Positions 53,755 through 64,000 of a stretch of DNA of 64,000 bases are shown here, in pieces; positions within the stretch are counted from its first letter, which is position 1, and each line of letters begins with the position of its first letter. A program made the position numbers and the translations under genes. The DNA is taken from positions 1-64,000 of IMG/VR virus record IMGVR_UViG_3300020577_003668, one strand, 5' to 3'. The notes under the pieces were generated by a model. The model worked only from the letters and a program-made list of their open reading frames with translations, was not told the DNA's origin and ran no database searches. This DNA is from a virus. Its lineage: Duplodnaviria > Caudoviricetes.

Positions 53755-54339
53755 TATAATAATTGTTCGATATGTGATAATACCAAGCATACCGCTGAGG
53801 TACAAGGCGTAGTATGTTAGCCGGATCGCAAGACGCAAAACGAGTAATGCGGCGCACTCGGGTATATTTACTAGAGGATGAGCGCTCTAGTATCTTAATG
53901 TAGCTTCGATACCCAGGAAGACTGGTCACGGTCCTGGCAGTAATATGTGACCGTCTACAGACCCAGAGTTGAGTTTACAACTCTTCAAAAAGAAAACTGG
54001 TGGAACAGTCTAACTATCGACATTAAATTTAGTCAATCTGTGAAACACCAGGTTGGTCCCGACAGTCGCAAGTCTTTAACACGCGAGTAGGTAATATGTC
54101 TGACTATTCCGTCGAAAGATACGGTGCATTGGGGAAGACACGCTTTAAGCTGCTAACAGGCGTTTTCTATTGAGTTAGCCCAGGACCGAGTAACCTGGAC
54201 CTTTATACGAAGTAATTAAGGCTGGACGGATACGACGTACTTGAACTACGTCCGATAACGACCGCTGAGAATTGGTTGGTCCCTTTTCTACAGCTTCTAG
54301 CACGACCACTTAGTTGCTTCCTATAAAGGTTTTGAATTA

Positions 54340-54444
54340 CCCTGTATTGCTAATATTGGTAAAGAGCGACCCTTATAAAGTCGTAGTAAGCACTCAATAG
54401 ATAATTGAGCTTCAATCTTGGTTCGATTCCAAGTGCAGGGACCA
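54340..54444 (+). tRNA. tRNA-Ile(TAT) with a large variable arm
   Basis: CCCTGTA/TGCAGGG, loop CTTATAA, about 33-nt variable region, T arm, CCA. Confidence 0.7.
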
Positions 54445-54448
54445 CAAC

Positions 54449-54515
54449 AGGCGAAAAGGGTAGCTCCCCTGACAGTGCCTATATCACTGTATAGCCTATC
54501 TTATATAGGAAGAGT
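54449..54515 (+). promoter_or_regulatory. Three-way-junction leader with a loop complementary to the SD (copy 1)
   Basis: AGGC-GAAAA-GGGTAGCTCCC-hairpin(loop CCTATAT)-TA-GCCT, then ATATAGG. Confidence 0.75.
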
Positions 54516-55106
54516 ATGTATACTAAAGAAATAGTCCCATTAAAGGGCCTAAAAGCTGGCTATGTAATATTCAGAGATCATAGCCACCCCTTAGCCTATG
54601 ATGATGGCGCTGTATATTTGCACAGACATGTTGCAAGTATTAAGTTGGGGAGATGGGTTACAAGCGAAGAGTATGTTCATCATATTGATGAAAATAAGTT
54701 AAATAATGAACCTTATAATCTAGAAATACTATCTAACTCAGAGCATAGTAAGATACATAATCCAAATAATTTAAGTAAGATTATTTGCCCAACATGTAAA
54801 AAAGAATTCCAACCCATTAGTTGCAAAATACAATATTGTTCTCCTAAATGTTACGCAGTAACAACTATTAAAAATACAAAGATAACAAAAGAATTATTAG
54901 ATGAACTTATACCTAAGACTTCTTGGAGAGATTTAGGTAATATGTTTGGATATTCAGATAACGGAATAAAGAAGCGTGCTAAGGCTTTAGGGTGTGACAC
55001 TTCTAATGCAAAGAATAAGCGAATGCCAGCTAGACCGAATGGGGGGTACACGCTTGATAAGCGTGCTGTACTTGGATCGAAACCAAGAGTTGGTACCAAA
55101 GGATAA
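54516..55106 (+). CDS. HNH homing endonuclease
   Basis: VYLHRHV, VHHIDENKLNN, EHSKIH, CxxC...CxxxC. Confidence 0.85.
   Translation: MYTKEIVPLKGLKAGYVIFRDHSHPLAYDDGAVYLHRHVASIKLGRWVTSEEYVHHIDENKLNNEPYNLEILSNSEHSKIHNPNNLSKIICPTCKKEFQPISCKIQYCSPKCYAVTTIKNTKITKELLDELIPKTSWRDLGNMFGYSDNGIKKRAKALGCDTSNAKNKRMPARPNGGYTLDKRAVLGSKPRVGTKG
55025..55098 (+). tRNA. tRNA-Ile(GAT), nested in the 3' end of the HNH ORF
   Basis: GCCAGCT/AGTTGGT, CACGC-TTGATAA-GCGTG, CCA. Confidence 0.75.
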
Positions 55107-55107
55107 T

Positions 55108-55190
55108 GCCCCTGTGACTTATGCAAATTGGCACAGCTACGAGTCTTAGAAGCTCGGTTTTTCCCGGTTCGAATCCGGGCGGGGGTACCA
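55108..55190 (+). tRNA. tRNA-Leu(TAG), short variable arm
   Basis: Loop CTTAGAA, T arm CCCGG-TTCGAAT-CCGGG, CCA. Confidence 0.85.
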
Positions 55191-55235
55191 AATTTTCAGA
55201 TTGATTTTAGAATCCATCCATAGTATAATTATATT

Positions 55236-55874
55236 ATGGAGGACTCAAAAATGATCGAAGAATTAGTATACAAAATATGTACAGTAATCGGGGAGGACCC
55301 CGATAAAAAAATAAAGAGACCTATAAGAGGTCTACCAGGTATAACTGTATTTAGTCTAATAGAGGCGCTATTAGTAGCCGGTACCCTTAATAAGGCTGCT
55401 GAATATTTAGGATATACCACCAATCCCGTAAAACAGGCAATTAAAGAGGTACTAATACCTACCTTTAGTACTAGGCATAAAGAATATGGTAGTGGAGGTG
55501 GTCTAACCCCCTGGAAATACGAGTTACTAAAGTGTATTAACTATAAGTGTTGTGGCCAATGTAATAGAATATTGCCACATAGCGAATATTACTCTAATAC
55601 GTCTAGAATAGTAGATGGGCTTGCAAGTTTTTGTAAATCGTGTAATATAGCTGCTTCAAAATCCCACAAGTATTATATAGTACAAAGAACCCCTTCCTGG
55701 TCGGAACTAGACTTAATAGCCGAATTCTATAGAAACTGTCCTATAGGTTATCACGTAGATCATATATTACCCCTCAGAGGGAATAACGTAAGTGGCTTAC
55801 ACGTATTAAGTAATCTACAATATCTCTCCGCCACAGAAAACATGAAAAAGGGTAATAAGTTTAGTATTGAATAA
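55236..55874 (+). CDS. HNH endonuclease
   Basis: CxxC pairs, YHVDHILPL...GLHVLSNLQ...ENMKKGN. Confidence 0.85.
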   Translation: MEDSKMIEELVYKICTVIGEDPDKKIKRPIRGLPGITVFSLIEALLVAGTLNKAAEYLGYTTNPVKQAIKEVLIPTFSTRHKEYGSGGGLTPWKYELLKCINYKCCGQCNRILPHSEYYSNTSRIVDGLASFCKSCNIAASKSHKYYIVQRTPSWSELDLIAEFYRNCPIGYHVDHILPLRGNNVSGLHVLSNLQYLSATENMKKGNKFSIE

Positions 55875-55876
55875 TT

Positions 55877-55961
55877 GCCAGAGTGGAGTAACGGTAGCCT
55901 CTGCGGACTTAAAATTCGCCGTCCTTGTGGCGTACGGGTTCGATTCCCGTCTCTGGTACCA
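55877..55961 (+). tRNA. tRNA-Leu(TAA)
   Basis: Loop CTTAAAA, long variable arm, CCA. Confidence 0.9.
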
Positions 55962-55967
55962 AATAAT

Positions 55968-56043
55968 ACGAAAATAACTCAAATGGCTAGAGTCCCGCCT
56001 CTTAAGCGGTGAGATCCTGGTTCGATCCCAGGTTTTCGTACCA
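55968..56043 (+). tRNA. tRNA-Lys(CTT)
   Basis: Loop CTCTTAA, T arm, CCA. Confidence 0.8.
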
Positions 56044-56160
56044 AGAACAGCGGAGTTGAGACCCGAAAACTAGAACCAACCGTATAAGTTACCTTATACG
56101 ACTTAGGTGGTCGAATTCTAGCACGATAGTTGAAGCCTTAGACTATCCTCTTACGTTTCT

Positions 56161-56306
56161 AAAACCGCGGGCTAGTTTAATAGGAAAAACACCGCGCGCG
56201 AAACTCCCTACCCTATGGCAGTATGTACGGTCTGCAGCCGACTATATACGTAAGCAATGGGACATACATGTGAGATACATCTTTCGAAGGATGTGCCCAC
56301 GGTTTT
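56161..56306 (+). ncRNA. tRNA-like scaffold with the anticodon arm replaced by a long structured insert
   Basis: CCGCGGGC/GCCCACGG acceptor-like stem, D arm GTTT-AATAGGAA-AAAC, T-like arm ACATC/GATGT. Confidence 0.5.
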
Positions 56307-56322
56307 AGGAACTTAACATAAA

Positions 56323-56757
56323 ATGATTACATATACAAAAGGTAACGTAGCTTTAGCTAGAGAAGCTCATATTGCTCATGGCTGTAATGCTCAAGGCGTT
56401 ATGGGTTCTGGCGTAGCTAAGGAAATTCGTAGGCTATACCCTGATGCATATACTGCATATCGTATGGCGTACTTGCGTACAGGGCTTGAACTTGGTTCAG
56501 TTGTTGTAGCTACTCCTATTGACGGTAAGATCATCTATAACTGCATTACTCAGCAGTATTATGGTAATGATGATAAGGTATACGCTTCGTATGAAGCAAT
56601 TGCTAAATGCTTCGCCTTCATGAACGGTTGGGTAGCGGGCAGAGCTGCTTTAGCAATTCCACGTATTGGCTGTGGGCTTGGTGGACTTGAATGGGATAAA
56701 GTAGAAGCTATTATCTTGAAGGCTGCACGTTACGACGTTGTAGTCTACGATATTTGA
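56323..56757 (+). CDS. Macro-domain (ADP-ribose processing) protein
   Basis: IAHGCN...MGSGVA, PRIGCGLGGLEW. Confidence 0.9.
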   Translation: MITYTKGNVALAREAHIAHGCNAQGVMGSGVAKEIRRLYPDAYTAYRMAYLRTGLELGSVVVATPIDGKIIYNCITQQYYGNDDKVYASYEAIAKCFAFMNGWVAGRAALAIPRIGCGLGGLEWDKVEAIILKAARYDVVVYDI

Positions 56758-56812
56758 TCTTGATTTCAGCGCTTAGACAGTATATAATATTGTCTAATCA
56801 GTGAGATTTTGA

Positions 56813-57124
56813 ATGACTAAAAAGAGATTTGGCGTGACCGCTATCATTTATGATAAGCGTGGTCGGGTTTTGAGTGTTGGTAGTAATAGTTATGTAAAGA
56901 CCCACCCGCTTCAAGCGGATCACGCTCGTCGTGCCGGGGAACCCAGTAAGATTTACCTACACGCGGAAATTCATGCGATTACTCGCTGCCGCGACATTTC
57001 TAAAGCCTATCGTATGGCTATTTTTAGGTATCTTGAAGATGGTTCCCCGGCGAGGGCGTGTCCTTGTAATATCTGTCGTAGCGCTATTGACGCTACCCCT
57101 ATTAAGATTGTTGAGCATACATGA
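56813..57124 (+). CDS. Zn-dependent cytidine/dCMP deaminase-like protein
   Basis: HAE...PCNIC. Confidence 0.8.
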   Translation: MTKKRFGVTAIIYDKRGRVLSVGSNSYVKTHPLQADHARRAGEPSKIYLHAEIHAITRCRDISKAYRMAIFRYLEDGSPARACPCNICRSAIDATPIKIVEHT

Positions 57125-57318
57125 CCACTAATACTAAAGGTACCCCCAAGTCTTGTTCGTGTTCCCAATGCCGTAGAGGCAAACACGACGGAGCAAAAGA
57201 TATTGTAAAAGCAGATGAGCGGGCTTATCGGCACGCTGCAAAAATTGCTCTAGCTAATATGGATCTAGAAGAAGGCGTTGTGCTTAATTCTGGGCCCATT
57301 GGAAATTACTACGATTAA
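57121..57318 (+). CDS. Small hypothetical protein
   Basis: CSCSQC motif, coupled ORF. Confidence 0.5.
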   Translation: MTTNTKGTPKSCSCSQCRRGKHDGAKDIVKADERAYRHAAKIALANMDLEEGVVLNSGPIGNYYD

Positions 57319-57319
57319 A

Positions 57320-57395
57320 CTCTCATAAGTGTTGCCTGATGGCATACTGCGTTTGGGGCGCAGTGGGGAAGGTTTGAATCCTTCATGGGAGACCA
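57320..57395 (+). tRNA. tRNA-Pro(TGG)
   Basis: CTGCG-TTTGGGG-CGCAG, CCA. Confidence 0.8.
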
Positions 57396-57453
57396 ATTAA
57401 AAAAATTAACTTGATTTTGTGCTGCATTTCAAGTATAATGATTACTAATCAGT

Positions 57454-57529
57454 GGGATTGTGGCGAAAGGGTTATCGCATCACCCTTTTAAGGTGTAAGT
57501 TATTGGTTCGAATCCAATCAGTCCTACCA
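57454..57529 (+). tRNA. tRNA-Lys(TTT)
   Basis: Loop CTTTTAA, T arm, CCA. Confidence 0.9.
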
Positions 57530-57752
57530 AAGAATTACCGAGCATTTTAGCTGGCGCTTCCGACAACCTCCGGATAGGCTACTATGTGTGTTAGAGGTGA
57601 CGCGAGTAAGTGGCGATCTCAAGGGCCTAGCGTTAATGCAACGTATAGGATATCCAAGTATCAAAACCTCGTTCGGTGTAGTGAGCTAATTTTGTATTTT
57701 TTACGAGTTCACTTTAATCTCTAGACGTTAAAAACCCTTAGTTCGCTAAGGC

Positions 57753-57825
57753 GTGATCTTATCTCAAGTGGAAGAGAGCAAGGCTGTGAACCTTGTAAGT
57801 ACGATTTCGACTATCGTAGATCACC
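57753..57825 (+). tRNA. tRNA-His(GTG)
   Basis: CAAGG-CTGTGAA-CCTTG, C discriminator. Confidence 0.85.
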
Positions 57826-57845
57826 CCTTAACGAATTAAATTTAT

Positions 57846-57921
57846 TGCGGGCGAGGAAGACGGCAATCCAGCAGGCTCATAACCTGAAAATACTCAGTTC
57901 AACTCTGAGGCTCCGCAACCA
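57846..57921 (+). tRNA. tRNA-Met(CAT), initiator-like
   Basis: Loop CTCATAA, T loop TTCAACT, CCA. Confidence 0.8.
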
Positions 57922-58140
57922 ATAAATAGCATAGGCGGTAGCATTATGCGTAGGTGAGACTCCTACAACTAATTAAAGACTTAAGGTAACGAATATACGT
58001 AGGCAGGATGACCGGATCAAGTCGCTTCGGCGAATGAGAGTTCAAATCGAACTTGTTCTTGTGAATAAGCCCATGCGCGGTGACGTACTTTTCGCGGAAC
58101 TGAGGATACTGCGCTGGTAATTGTCGCCCTCATTATTTTA

Positions 58141-58212
58141 GCGGCTAAGGTGTTTATGGACGCACGTTAGTCTTCCAAACTTAAGGAGTCGGATCGTTAC
58201 CGACTAGCCGCT
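58141..58212 (+). tRNA. tRNA-Gly(TCC)
   Basis: GCGGCTA/TAGCCGC, loop CTTCCAA, U discriminator. Confidence 0.85.
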
Positions 58213-58219
58213 CATCTAT

Positions 58220-58289
58220 AAGACGAAAAGGGTAGCTCCCCTGTCATTGCCTATATCAATGACTAGTCTTTTCTTATATAGGAAGAATT
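58220..58289 (+). promoter_or_regulatory. Three-way-junction leader with a loop complementary to the SD (copy 2)
   Basis: AAGAC-GAAAA-GGGTAGCTCCC-hairpin(loop CCTATAT)-TA-GTCTT, then ATATAGG. Confidence 0.75.
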
Positions 58290-59009
58290 ATGACAATAGG
58301 AATATACTCTCTTTATTGGGAGAAAGAAGACTTAGTTTATGTTGGGCTGTCTCAGAATATAGAAGATAGATACAGAGAACATATTCTAAAAATGAGAAAA
58401 TTAAAGCATTCTAACTATAAAGTGCAGAATGCATATAATTTATATGGAATACCCAGACTAGCTATATTAGAAGAATGTAGTATACCAGAATTAAACGATA
58501 AAGAAATCTTTTGGACAAAAGAATTTAATTCTATTAATGCTGGGTTAAATATAGTAGAGGCAGGCGAAGTAGGTTGGGGTGTTAATTCGAATGCATCCAA
58601 ATATACTAAAAGACAAATATTAAAAGTATTTGCTGTATTATACAATACTTTTAATTCTGCCGAACAAATAGCTAGTAGGTGCGGAGTCCCTACGTCTTTT
58701 GTGCACACTATCTCTAAAGGAGATAGTCATAAGTGGTTGGAAGATGAATACCCGCAACAATTTGCAAAAATGCGTAAAATTGCTGAGTCGAGGGTAAGAC
58801 AGAAATTTTCTTCTGATATTATCTATATTAAAAACAATATAGTATATCTAAAAAGTCCTACTGGTGAAATAGTAAAAATAGATACCTCTATACGTGAGTT
58901 TTGTAGAAAACATAATTTAAACTCAGGCCCTATGTCTGAAGTTATAAAGGGCCAGAGAAATCAAAATAAAGGGTGGACTTTACATGCCCATTCTAAGAAA
59001 GAGGTATAG
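58290..59009 (+). CDS. GIY-YIG homing endonuclease
   Basis: GIY...YVG, paralog of the genes at 19746 and 50062. Confidence 0.85.
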   Translation: MTIGIYSLYWEKEDLVYVGLSQNIEDRYREHILKMRKLKHSNYKVQNAYNLYGIPRLAILEECSIPELNDKEIFWTKEFNSINAGLNIVEAGEVGWGVNSNASKYTKRQILKVFAVLYNTFNSAEQIASRCGVPTSFVHTISKGDSHKWLEDEYPQQFAKMRKIAESRVRQKFSSDIIYIKNNIVYLKSPTGEIVKIDTSIREFCRKHNLNSGPMSEVIKGQRNQNKGWTLHAHSKKEV

Positions 59010-59048
59010 TACGACCCGCAAATCAGTACTGCAAATAGAGATATTTGC

Positions 59049-59133
59049 TCCAAGGTGGCCAGAGTGGTAATGGTCCTCGCTGTTAACGAGATATGGTTAA
59101 CTACCTTCGTAGGTTCGATCCCTACCCTTGGAG
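59049..59133 (+). tRNA. tRNA-Asn(GTT) with a long variable arm
   Basis: TCCAAGG/CCTTGGA, loop CTGTTAA, G discriminator. Confidence 0.8.
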
Positions 59134-59322
59134 CAAATATCTTTAGATACTACTAATAATTAAGTATTCTTTTGGGTATGAGTGTTAGACGTAACACCTA
59201 TGGGCCTGTTCTGGCGAGGAACTACCCTGATATAACTGTCTAGTCGCTATGGGATGAAAGCATCAGACCCCTAAATAGGACATAAGAATACTTAATTATT
59301 GGGCTTGTAGTATAGAATTATA

Positions 59323-59397
59323 GGGCTGTTCGTATACTGGGTATTACTTCTGTTTTGCATGCAGAAAAAGGCGGATCGTAACCGCCACGGTCCACCA
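59323..59397 (+). tRNA. tRNA-Ala(TGC)
   Basis: G3:U70, loop TTTGCAT, CCA. Confidence 0.88.
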
Positions 59398-59400
59398 TAT

Positions 59401-59473
59401 TAAGCGAAAAGGGTAGCTCCCCCGCTGTTGCCAACTCAACAGCTAGCTTATTAGTTTCTAGTTGGAGATAAAA
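59401..59473 (+). promoter_or_regulatory. Three-way-junction leader with a loop complementary to the SD (copy 3)
   Basis: TAAGC-GAAAA-GGGTAGCTCCC-hairpin(loop CCAACT)-TA-GCTTA, then AGTTGG. Confidence 0.75.
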
Positions 59474-59974
59474 ATGATTATAAAAGAATTTGTATCTAAG
59501 GATACATCTAATAGAACTCGTATGTTTTTAGAACTTCAATGCGAAGTTTGTAAGACTATATTTAGTAGGCAAAAAAGACTAGTAAATACACATACGTGTT
59601 CTGCTAAATGTAGAAATGCCTTTACAGGTATAACTGTAGAATTACAGTGTGATAACTGTGGGGTACCTTTCTTTAGAGCTAAATCTAAACTAGATAATTC
59701 TAAGTCTGGTAAGTATTTTTGCTGTAGACAGTGTAAAGATACTGCACAAACATATATGGAAGAAATAAGGCCGGAACATTATGGTAATGGTAGAGCTTCC
59801 TATAGAGAAAAAGCTTTTAGACATTATAAACCTATTTGTACAAAATGTGGTTTTTCTAATAGATTAGCCCTAGAAGTTCATCATAAAGACAAAGATCGTA
59901 ATAATAACGAAATAGATAATTTAGAAATATTATGTGCTAATTGTCATAATATTTCTCATGCTCTTTTAGCTTAG
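59474..59974 (+). CDS. HNH endonuclease with Zn-ribbon repeats
   Basis: Several CxxC, LEVHHKDKDRNNN...LCANCH. Confidence 0.85.
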   Translation: MIIKEFVSKDTSNRTRMFLELQCEVCKTIFSRQKRLVNTHTCSAKCRNAFTGITVELQCDNCGVPFFRAKSKLDNSKSGKYFCCRQCKDTAQTYMEEIRPEHYGNGRASYREKAFRHYKPICTKCGFSNRLALEVHHKDKDRNNNEIDNLEILCANCHNISHALLA

Positions 59975-60034
59975 TGGAAAAGCCCCTACTTGGTATGTAG
60001 GAGAGCGTTAGTTCGATTCTAACATAGAGCACCA
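59960..60034 (+). tRNA. tRNA-Thr(GGT)
   Basis: CCTAC-TTGGTAT-GTAGG, CCA; overlaps the HNH stop codon. Confidence 0.85.
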
Positions 60035-61277: not shown

Positions 61278-61431
61278 TTGTGTGGTGTTAGAAACGGTTA
61301 CTTCATTTTGGATATGACTGTATGTGGGTTCGAGTCCCGCCGGCCCTAATAAATGTACTAAGTATATTTATTAGGGCCGTAGGCAAATTGGTAAAGCCGG
61401 TAAAAAGCTCTGTTTCGCCTTGTTCCCACAG
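61278..61431 (+). ncRNA. YrlA-type Y RNA 3 (permuted tRNA-like domain, TGG anticodon-like loop)
   Basis: GAAACGG-TTACTTC, TCAT-TTTGGAT-ATGA, GTGGG-TTCGAGT-CCCGC, acceptor hairpin, D arm, CTGTTTC...TTGTTC. Confidence 0.85.
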
Positions 61432-61577: not shown

Positions 61578-62909
61578 ATGTCTAGCCTAAATCGTACTGT
61601 ATATCGCCAAAATATTACTGGTGCCCAAATGGCCCAGAATCATCACGGCCTGAAGGTTACTGCCCTATCTCCTGAAGCCAAGCTGACTCGCCTAACCATG
61701 GCGCACATGCTTTGGGAAAAGCAATTCTATGTTGACGGACAGAAGTCCGCCGACCTAATGGCGTCCCTTGTTACCAAGGTGTCACCATCGTTCGTGTCCA
61801 ACCTGGCTCGCCAGGCGCGCGATAAGTTCAAGCTTCGTCACGTGCCTCTGCACCTGATGCGTTCACTTGCGAAGTCAGGCGCTCTCAAGGCGGCTGATCT
61901 AGCTGAAGTGATCCAACGTCCGGACGAACTTTCCGAGTTCGTTTCCCTTTACTGGGCCGACAAGAAGCAACCTCTGTCCAACCAGGTTAAGAAGGGTCTT
62001 GCACTTGCCTTTGGTAAGTTCAACGAATACCAACTTGCTAAGTGGGATAAGAACTCCGCAGTGGTATCGCTGCGCGACGTGATGTTCCTAGCACACCCAA
62101 AGCCTGCTAACGCAGAGCAAGCTGCCCTTTTCAAGAAGGTAGCAGACCAAAAGCTAGAAACCCCTGATACTTGGGAAACCAATCTATCTGCGGGTGCGGA
62201 TAAGAAGGCTACTTTTACCACCCTAATGCAGGATGGTAAGCTAGGTGCGCTTGCGTTCCTACGTAACCTTCGTAACATGGTGGAATCTGGTGTATCCGAA
62301 TCTCTGATTCGTGATTACTCCAAGACAGTTAACACTGATCGTGTTCTACCTTTCCGTTTCCTTGCGGCAGCCCGCATTGTTCCTCAATTTGAGGACATGC
62401 TAGAAGCAATGATGTTCCGTTCCTGCGAAGGTATGGAAAAGCTGCCAGGCAAGACTAAGCTATACGTAGACGTTTCCGGCTCCATGTATACCCCTAAGGT
62501 TAGTGAAAAGTCCGACCTAACACGTCAGGATGCTTCGCTTGCCCTAGCTATTCTGTGTCGGGAACTATGCGAAGAAGTAGAAATCTACAGCTTCAGCGGA
62601 AAATCTCTACGTATTGCCCCTCGCCGAGGGTTTGCTCTAGCAGACGCTATCAAGACCAGCCAAGGCTGCTCTGGTACTCAGCTAGGACATAGTCTGAAAG
62701 AAACCGAATCTAAAGCTGATCGCATCGTTGTAATCACTGATGAACAATCTAGTGATATGCCTTCTGCTCCTTTTGGTGGAGCCAAGGGTTACCTAATCAA
62801 CGTAGGTAGCTATCAGAACGGCGTTAACCATAACGCCTGGACTAGCATTACTGGCTTCTCCGAAGCTGTATTTAGCTATATCCAAATGTTCGAACGCGAA
62901 GGCGTTTAA
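61578..62909 (+). CDS. rsr: Ro60 / TROVE-domain RNA-binding protein with C-terminal vWA domain
   Basis: IQRPDE, FNEYQLAKW, LRDVMFLAHPKP, PDTWETNLS, LRNLRN, LPFRFL, VDVSGSM MIDAS, VITDEQ. Confidence 0.93.
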   Translation: MSSLNRTVYRQNITGAQMAQNHHGLKVTALSPEAKLTRLTMAHMLWEKQFYVDGQKSADLMASLVTKVSPSFVSNLARQARDKFKLRHVPLHLMRSLAKSGALKAADLAEVIQRPDELSEFVSLYWADKKQPLSNQVKKGLALAFGKFNEYQLAKWDKNSAVVSLRDVMFLAHPKPANAEQAALFKKVADQKLETPDTWETNLSAGADKKATFTTLMQDGKLGALAFLRNLRNMVESGVSESLIRDYSKTVNTDRVLPFRFLAAARIVPQFEDMLEAMMFRSCEGMEKLPGKTKLYVDVSGSMYTPKVSEKSDLTRQDASLALAILCRELCEEVEIYSFSGKSLRIAPRRGFALADAIKTSQGCSGTQLGHSLKETESKADRIVVITDEQSSDMPSAPFGGAKGYLINVGSYQNGVNHNAWTSITGFSEAVFSYIQMFEREGV

Positions 62910-63914: not shown

Positions 63915-63979
63915 GATTGTCGTAATTCGGATCAAGCAGATGTGGGCCAGACGGGGCTTCGCCGCCCCCACCTCCACCA
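63902..63979 (+). ncRNA. tmRNA-like 3' end (possible acceptor piece or remnant)
   Basis: GAC-GGGGC-TTCGCC-GCCCC-CACCTCC-A-CCA. Confidence 0.4.
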
Positions 63980-64000
63980 GTTAGTATAGAGTATAGATGC

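Follow-up and report, generated by a model that had tools for sequence, protein, structure and literature searches.

Homing endonucleases are among the commonest selfish genes of phages, and how their carriers escape harm is known for only a few genes of T4. Previous studies showed that RNA structures hiding the ribosome-binding site (RBS) repress the T-even endonuclease genes I-TevI, I-TevII, I-TevIII and segB, as well as mobE of Aeh1 (PMC2988022). Those hairpins are simple and gene-specific, and the repression is relieved by an embedded late promoter which gives a shorter, translatable transcript (PMC2988022). In this study we describe a leader RNA that precedes three endonuclease genes in the tRNA region of a tailed phage, the window analysed being the initial 64 kb of an IMG/VR virus record (IMGVR_UViG_3300020577_003668) that is 105.5 kb long and has direct terminal repeats. 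The leader resembles the T-even hairpins in that a structure in cis pairs with the Shine-Dalgarno (SD) sequence of the nuclease gene and is taken to limit its translation. It differs from them, however, in that the SD is held in a loop pseudoknot and not in a hairpin arm; in that one conserved family occurs across all nuclease folds and many phage lineages and moves with the cassette; and in that the promoter, where present, lies 6-8 nt upstream of the first helix (P1), and the transcript therefore holds the entire structure. Structural occlusion of the RBS of phage homing endonucleases is already known, whereas a conserved, portable family of junction and pseudoknot within a mobile unit is not known so far. 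We read the leader, with confidence slightly better than even, as a self-contained translational lock, intrinsic and context-independent, which would act by its fold alone and without a dedicated ligand.

The riboswitches are the other described group with which the leader can be compared. SAM-II and preQ1-II are pseudoknot riboswitches which cover the SD and are of marginal stability. The leader is like these two and like preQ1-III and guanidine-III in its compact core, covarying helices, marginal SD-covering pseudoknot and position at the 5' end of the mRNA. On the other hand, its genes are selfish nucleases of unrelated families that belong to no metabolic pathway, it has no match in Rfam and it is confined to phages. 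Of the features that define a riboswitch, an aptamer-like core and a platform overlapping the SD were found, whereas genes related to a ligand were not.

A scan of positions 40000-64000 with cmscan against Rfam 15 (E up to 1), a check proposed in a preliminary description of the locus, returned tRNAs and weak unrelated matches, none of them at 54449, 58220 or 59401, and no described family matched the leader, riboswitches, the hammerhead, twister, pistol and hatchet ribozymes, tRNA and r-protein leaders included. The core sequence appeared in no relevant context in the literature searched, where T4 literature and general RNA-discovery papers came up. Endonuclease leaders are not treated in the main text of a 2023 survey that catalogued some 10,000 candidate structured RNAs of viruses (PMC10690425), and the family could be an unnamed entry in its supplement.

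Leader copies in the window

The preliminary description had reported three copies of the leader with a single layout, and this was borne out both by direct reading of the sequence and by a search for the core. A 16-base core had exactly three exact matches in the window, which start at 54453, 58225 and 59406 and lie without exception on the + strand; when three mismatches were allowed, 0.33 chance matches were expected. Neither the core search nor a covariance model found a fourth copy in the whole 105.5-kb record. Each copy runs in order through P1 of 4-5 bp, the core, a P3 hairpin of 6-7 bp, the bases (A)TA, the returning strand P1', a short linker, a complement of the P3 loop and the ATG. 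The complements first noted between loop and SD region are indeed present (CCTATAT/ATATAGG in two copies, CCAACT/AGTTGG in one), and each terminates within the leading G's of the SD, with 7-8 nt left to the ATG. The open reading frames (ORFs) behind the copies, described earlier as two HNH types and a GIY-YIG, were placed by Pfam in HNH_3, GIY-YIG and HNH. The original observation is thus confirmed. The copies, with the tRNA or tRNA-like gene before and the ORF behind each, are as follows.

54340..54444, + strand: degenerate tRNA-like gene, 4 nt 5' of P1 of copy 1 (ARAGORN, relaxed threshold)
54449..54518, + strand: leader copy 1 (core match; 69.2 bits with model R1); P1 54449-54452 with 54494-54497; J1/2 GAAAA 54453-54457; P2 54458-54460 with 54466-54468, loop 54461-54465; J2/3 54469-54471; P3 54472-54477 with 54485-54490; L3 54478-54484; J3/1 54491-54493; linker 54498-54502; pseudoknot 3' strand 54503-54509, terminating in the first GG of the SD; ATG 54516
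54516..55106, + strand: HNH_3 homing-endonuclease-like ORF of 196 aa behind copy 1 (Pfam PF13392, E 4.2e-10)
58141..58213, + strand: tRNA-Gly(UCC), whose 3' end is the left edge of the copy-2 cassette; copy 2 starts 6 nt later
58220..58292, + strand: leader copy 2 (core match; 69.1 bits with model R1; minimum free energy (MFE) fold a three-way junction); P1 58220-58224 with 58266-58270; core 58225-58242; P3 58243-58249 with 58257-58263; L3 58250-58256; TA 58264-58265; linker 58271-58275; pseudoknot 3' strand 58276-58282; ATG 58290
58290..59009, + strand: GIY-YIG endonuclease ORF of 239 aa behind copy 2, with an I-HmuI-type NUMOD-like tail (Pfam PF01541, E 3e-05; PF22083)
59323..59397, + strand: tRNA-Ala(UGC), 3 nt 5' of P1 of copy 3
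59401..59476, + strand: leader copy 3 (core match; 76.1 bits with model R1; MFE fold a three-way junction); P1 59401-59405 with 59446-59450; core 59406-59423; P3 59424-59430 with 59437-59443; L3 59431-59436; TA 59444-59445; linker 59451-59459; pseudoknot 3' strand 59460-59465; ATG 59474
59474..59974, + strand: HNH endonuclease ORF of 166 aa behind copy 3 (Pfam PF01844, E 8.8e-06)

Each copy had also been said to lie just after a tRNA. This holds for copies 2 and 3, which follow tRNA-Gly and tRNA-Ala, whereas copy 1 follows the degenerate gene at 54340-54444, a relaxed-threshold call. That gene is class-II-like, with a good acceptor stem, a T arm, a long variable arm and an encoded CCA. ARAGORN in relaxed mode labelled it 'Tyr(ata)' and gave it an intron of 6 nt, although the anticodon can be read in more than one way, and it was called neither by ARAGORN at default nor by Rfam. 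The 3' ends of two of the nuclease ORFs overlap the next tRNA, namely an Rfam tRNA at 55025-55095 (ORF end 55106) and tRNA-Thr at 59960-60034 (ORF end 59974). As a consequence of these overlaps (55025-55106 and 59960-59974), tRNA excision would sever the nuclease mRNA 5' of its stop codon.

Architecture and covariation of the family

An exact scan of IMG/VR with the 16-mer yielded at least 120 stretches, the flanks of which showed one architecture nearly throughout, and 101 of the 103 distinct copies could be parsed to it. The parse consists of P1 of 4-6 bp, the core followed by CU, a P3 mostly of 7 bp with a loop mostly of 6 nt that starts with C and then C or U, and finally UA and P1'. The whole P3 loop pairs with the tail, with at least six contiguous pairs in 89 of 101 copies and 49 different loops; loops matched to the tails of other copies gave a mean run of 4.2, compared with 6.0 for their own tails.

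Covariation was assessed on an alignment of 99 sequences with 92 distinct rows. Standard pairs occupied 90.9% of its cells compared with 69.3% after shuffling, the cell counts being inflated by redundancy among related phages, and the covariation score was 0.555 compared with 0.18 for shuffled alignments and at most 0.10 when the partners were slid. Changes on both sides were found at all pairs of P1 and P3 and at five of the six pseudoknot pairs, the sixth (34-96) being changed on one side. The predicted fold is, on this comparative evidence, established by covariation. The covariation of P1 and P3 and the compensatory pairing of loop and SD region, which the preliminary description had drawn from three copies, therefore hold across about 100 distinct ones.

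The last two bases of the pseudoknot 3' strand are GG or AG, after which comes AG(A/G), and in 73 of 95 copies the distance to the start codon is 7-8 nt. Of the SD, no more than two or three leading bases lie inside the pseudoknot. As a bare duplex the pseudoknot is weak (median -5.5 kcal/mol), and its linker ranges from 4 to 19 nt. A CU directly 5' of the pseudoknot 3' strand is conserved in 74 and 79 of 97 copies, respectively, and is kept in several variants of the core; no pairing partner was found for it.

The core as a three-way junction

Since the family was gathered by an exact-match scan, its core is invariant by construction, and the sample is skewed to the canonical core. Variants were sought with model R1 on whole contigs and in the 5' regions of nuclease homologues. 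Between P1 and P2, the strand was found as GAAAA, GAAGA, GAACA, GAAC, GAAA and GAAAAA; P2 as GGG:CCC, GGG:CCU, GAG:CUC and GGA:UCC, always with purines on the 5' side; and the P2 loop as UAGCU, UCGCU, UUGCU, UUGCAA, UUGA and one loop of 8 nt (range 4-8 nt). With these variants in the alignment, the pairing of P2 is 100%, and two-sided changes occur at two of its three pairs. The bases fixed even among the variants are G-A-A after P1, U before P3, U-A after P3 and the first C of the loop, and the junction strands can be written as G-A-A-N-A (P1/P2), (C)U (P2/P3) and U-A (P3/P1').

The core had been described as invariant and unpaired. It is not unpaired throughout, as GGG pairs with CCC to give P2, a helix of 3 bp that covaries in the variants, nor is it wholly invariant in the wider family. 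The pocket for a ligand or protein that had been suggested on that ground fared differently in its parts: G-A-A, U and U-A are fixed as such a pocket would have them, whereas the P2 loop and one junction base vary and part of the supposed pocket is a helix. The case for a pocket is consequently weaker than the three copies of the window suggest. The junction also recalls the hammerhead ribozyme, whose core strands are CUGANGA and GAA, with a cleavage-site H; the GAA strand is present in the leader but the other strands are only CU and UA, which does not fit the hammerhead, and there was no Rfam match.

Other pairings of the core were considered and rejected. A kissing-loop dimer through the AGCU palindrome of the P2 loop is ruled out by the variant loops UCGCU, UUGCU and UUGA and by the 8-nt loop. 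The U-rich linker (UUUUC) is often complementary to the GAAAA strand, but where that strand is GAACA, GAAC or GAAA the linker has not changed to match. Apparent variants in the first G of P2 with an otherwise canonical core came from four contigs and were one identical chance match (GAAAAAGG...), with no leader structure 3' of the match.

The helices covary equally on either strand, and the fold could in principle belong to the opposite one, as an antisense small RNA directed against the ribosome site of the nuclease mRNA. A column-wise count of G-U and A-C cells on a MAFFT alignment was too noisy to indicate the strand, and fixed geometry was used instead, which gave G-U to A-C counts of 8:0 in P1, 20:16 in P3 and 2:3 in the pseudoknot. 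The 16 A-C cells of P3 would be G-U on the other strand, where P2 and the A run would also read as a small hairpin followed by a U run. The eight G-U and zero A-C cells of P1, however, speak for the sense strand. An antisense terminator made of P2 and the A run is ruled out, since an RNA stopping at the U run would lack one side of the P1 helix, all five pairs of which covary, and since the variants GAAGA, GAACA and GAAC interrupt the U run. Moreover, sense promoters lie at a fixed distance upstream in the family, no antisense promoter was found near the window copies, and the unrelated ORFs could not have one in common. An antisense RNA is in our estimation very improbable.

Genes behind the leader

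Behind 98 of the 101 parsed copies there is, at SD spacing, an ORF of 40 aa or more, and these ORFs fall in 19 BLAST clusters. The Pfam families represented are Endonuclease_7, HNH_3, HNH, HNH_2, GIY-YIG, T5orf172/MUG113, PD-(D/E)XK_5, LAGLIDADG_1, LAGLIDADG_3, DUF559 and zf-His_Me_endon. Nine of ten orphan ORFs matched endonuclease PHROGs, two of those weakly (E about 1e-4). The downstream genes therefore span every homing-endonuclease fold and comprise nucleases of at least five unrelated folds. For the 303-aa ORF behind the copy of Escherichia phage EP_H11 no PHROG or PDB relative was found, and its GIY-YIG match was sub-threshold (E 0.026).

The leader is not obligatory for such genes. An HNH-like ORF in the window (55236-55874, + strand), with a DH..N..N motif near its C-terminus and no Pfam hit, has a plain promoter (TTGATT-17-TATAAT) and no leader. 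Among the relatives of one HNH gene, the leader was present in 14 of 14 at an identity of at least 67%; the core was seen in none of 17 relatives less than 50% identical, for which the 110 nt upstream were inspected by eye only, with no model search.

Mobility of leader and gene

Two pairs of related phages differ in the presence of the leader. In the first, contigs of two public sequencing runs (X15 and X18) pass from 58213, where tRNA-Gly ends, to 58998 with CAA alone in between, so that the window phage has a relative without leader copy 2 and without the GIY-YIG gene. The join is the allele of a relative and not a splice, because the flanks bear scattered substitutions. These runs were used as contigs, and stretches of the window without cover carry no meaning. 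The segment concerned is the following.

58214..58997, + strand: mobile cassette of 6 nt, leader copy 2 and nearly the entire GIY-YIG ORF, missing in the related phage (contigs X15, X18)

In the second pair, EP_H11 (OP688485.1, 22496-22566) has one canonical copy, which scores 81.7 bits. Phage vB_EcoM_IME392 is 96% identical to EP_H11 up to 9 nt before P1, then diverges until just inside the next gene, and is without both the leader and the 303-aa ORF. As both empty sites lose the leader along with the gene, the leader lies within the mobile cassette, at its 5' edge. The presence and absence that mark a mobile free-standing homing-endonuclease cassette were thus found both between EP_H11 and IME392 and between the window phage and its relative. 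Two further observations were made at such sites. A second polymorphic site of the window is seen in the X15 contig, where 59303-59958 (tRNA-Ala, copy 3 and the HNH ORF) is swapped for 244 other bases. The empty site of IME392 (MH719082.1, 1492-1652) holds 161 nt unrelated to EP_H11 and hairpin-like by eye, and this stretch may be a different leader of the downstream gene.

Phage genes that travel are reportedly flanked by other elements as well: the PeSLs of T4-type phages, attributed to Arbiol et al. 2010, are said to be early promoters with stem-loops that serve as DNA recombination sites flanking mobile genes. PeSLs are like the leader in travelling with mobile phage genes, but they are not known to be a covarying RNA fold tied to the SD. 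A comparable role at the DNA level, in which the core would be a recombination or homing site or a protein operator and the RNA helices would be incidental, might be supposed for the leader too, as the core stands at the edge of a mobile cassette and is invariant in sequence in most copies. The compensatory changes in three helices and the SD-tied pseudoknot, however, have no explanation at the DNA level, nucleases of unrelated folds would not have one target in common, and the core lies downstream of the -10 box. We consider a DNA site extremely improbable.

Distribution among phages

The window phage is a siphovirus of the T5-like kind, though a distant one, with a capsid protein 40% identical to those of Vibrio and Aeromonas Demerecviridae. 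DNA near-identical to the window was found in runs from activated sludge, river, wastewater and freshwater belonging to several studies. Other carriers of the leader, with host assignments that rest on terminase similarity, are listed below.

60-kb phages: relatives of HMO-2011 and CRP-1, podoviruses of Alphaproteobacteria (TerL 70-79% identical)
AT-rich contig: T4-like, with best matches to cyanomyoviruses (TerL 42%)
87-kb phage: relative of Pseudomonas phage vB_PsaM_M1 (TerL 84%)
Contigs with a tail sheath, i.e. myoviruses

The terminase of the window phage had no detectable relative in four of five large carriers. No copy was found in cultured T5, Vibrio phages PG07 and D420, Aeromonas phage AhP_Mru1, vB_PsaM_M1, HMO-2011, CRP-1 or CRP-345. 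Among the genomes of 185,579 bacterial and archaeal species, the 19-mer of the core occurred once, on a 4-kb contig of a metagenome-assembled genome. A megablast search of the region against GenBank phages gave no match, and EP_H11 was the only match of a short-query blastn search. Judged from these comparisons, the element is phage-specific, sporadic and horizontally moved. The claim that the leader is portable and common to unrelated nuclease genes has thus held up, both in the list of downstream genes and in the spread over phages.

Position in the transcript and tRNA context

The leader had been thought to let toxic nucleases sit in a tRNA operon. This does not hold for the family at large, in which only eight of 101 distinct copies have a tRNA in the preceding 60 nt and about 40% a -10 box of their own; the tRNA context is local. 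The -10 hexamer of these copies, mostly TGnTATAAC, ends 6-8 nt before P1, and in the HMO-2011-like group it is an extended -10 preceded by TTGACA and a 17-nt spacer, i.e. a near-consensus promoter. In promoter-linked and tRNA-linked copies alike, P1 coincides with the expected 5' end of the RNA or lies a few bases from it. No promoter was found in front of the window copies and no promoter-like site inside them, phage-specific late promoters not having been modelled; the nearest + strand promoters in the window have the form TTGATT-17-TATAAT and lie at 55201, 56760 and 57411. The window copies are therefore expected to be read as part of the tRNA transcript.

The position at RNA ends would also suit an element of RNA processing or stability, such as a tRNA-like or RNase signal or a cap-like 5' protection, for which pairing with the SD would be secondary. 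P1 lies 3-6 nt after tRNA 3' ends in the window, the eight tRNA-linked copies and the roughly 40% at an expected transcription start can be read in the same way, P1 and P3 together have 11-12 bp, like an acceptor/T minihelix, and ACCA directly follows P1' in about one fifth of the copies. The ACCA is limited to one subgroup, however, and most copies have a U-rich linker there, so that a tRNA-like reading drawn from it is not general. Unlike a tRNA-like RNA or RNase P substrate, the element was matched neither by the Rfam tRNA model nor by ARAGORN. Processing would moreover leave unexplained why the loop tracks the SD flank through 49 loop variants. A processing element is, for us, improbable.

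Proposed function of the leader

In the translational lock that we prefer, the leader would be a cis-acting 5' RNA of about 70 nt on the sense strand which locks the RBS of its own nuclease gene. P1 (4-6 bp) would seal the domain off from the upstream sequence, serving as an insulator for a gene that lands in arbitrary operons, and the junction would set P1 and the 7-bp P3 side by side. The 6-7-nt loop of P3 could then reach back over the 4-19-nt linker and pair into the first two G of the GGAG SD. The side-by-side placement is suggested by the linker, which leaves the outer end of P1 and has as few as 4 nt in which to reach the P3 loop, and the junction scaffold probably makes the pseudoknot form, because the bare duplex is weak. 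With the first G's of the SD paired, binding of the 30S subunit should be hindered, and translation of the nuclease would stay low whatever the promoter or operon. The leader most likely keeps nuclease synthesis low in this way; the independence from a ligand is, like the geometry, what we infer.

Several points weigh against the lock as described. In the ViennaRNA predictions the junction was the minimum-energy fold in four of five leaders, but copy 1 prefers a different nested fold, and the MFE z-scores were ordinary (-0.7 to -1.8), so that support for the fold comes from covariation and not from energy. The G-U and A-C counts of P3 do not decide the strand. Repression may be mild, given that the pairing takes in no more than the two or three leading bases of the SD. 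An exact 19-base core kept in unrelated lineages while the helices drift is more than a plain lock needs and is typical of aptamers. Finally, a near-consensus promoter makes an odd partner for a permanent lock if nothing is there to open it.

These last points lead to a second reading, in which the same lock is set or released at the junction by a small molecule or a universal factor (e.g., a ribosomal protein, the 30S subunit or an RNA chaperone), so that the nuclease would be made only at a given stage or state of the infection. All helices covary, but the junction bases G-A-A, U and U-A stay the same even where the variants diverge. Phages of Alpha- and Gammaproteobacteria, and T4-like and T5-like backbones, have one and the same canonical core, which means that a partner, if there is any, must be universal. 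Stability of the pseudoknot is marginal, as in the riboswitches that cover the SD with a pseudoknot, and strong promoters of their own would make little sense before a permanent lock. On the other hand, the regulated genes have no common metabolic logic, their common trait being that they are selfish nucleases; the P2 loop varies in sequence and in length (4-8 nt) and position 4 of J1/2 can be A, G or C; and no conserved alternative (anti-pseudoknot) pairing was found. We regard such a sensor as the chief rival of the lock, though a tentative one. That the leader is a mobile aptamer, i.e. a new riboswitch-like class which selfish nuclease genes bring along from one phage to another, and which senses a universal molecule or cell component at the invariant junction and adjusts nuclease translation to a given state of the infected cell, is somewhat more doubtful still.

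Other features of the tRNA region

Several stretches between the tRNAs are free of ORFs and without Rfam assignment (53755-54340, 56044-56322, 57530-57752, 57918-58140 and 59135-59322), and a TROVE/Ro60 gene lies near them (61578-62909, Pfam E 9e-15). The tRNA cluster also contains, on the + strand, a Macro-domain ORF (56323-56757) and a small cytidine/dCMP-deaminase-like ORF (56813-57124). Sub-threshold Rfam matches to permuted transfer-messenger RNA were obtained on the + strand at 63918-64000 and 61324-61381, with 24.9 and 22.4 bits against a gathering score of 47.

Significance for phage homing endonucleases

Based on the results of this study, one small conserved RNA fold is part of the mobile unit and is common to HNH, GIY-YIG, LAGLIDADG and PD-(D/E)XK nucleases, spread over podovirus, siphovirus and myovirus backbones whose hosts belong to different bacterial classes. 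A fold of this kind would make a regulatory module independent of host and context. The leader is a candidate for a new Rfam family, and it could serve as a marker when free-standing nuclease cassettes, with their 5' edges, are annotated in metagenomes; possibly it could also be used as a ready-made insulated translation attenuator. Because a copy is present in EP_H11, a cultured phage of Escherichia coli, the predictions about loop and SD and about the junction are directly testable. If it is true that the junction binds something, the leader would be a riboswitch owned by a selfish element and not by a metabolic pathway.

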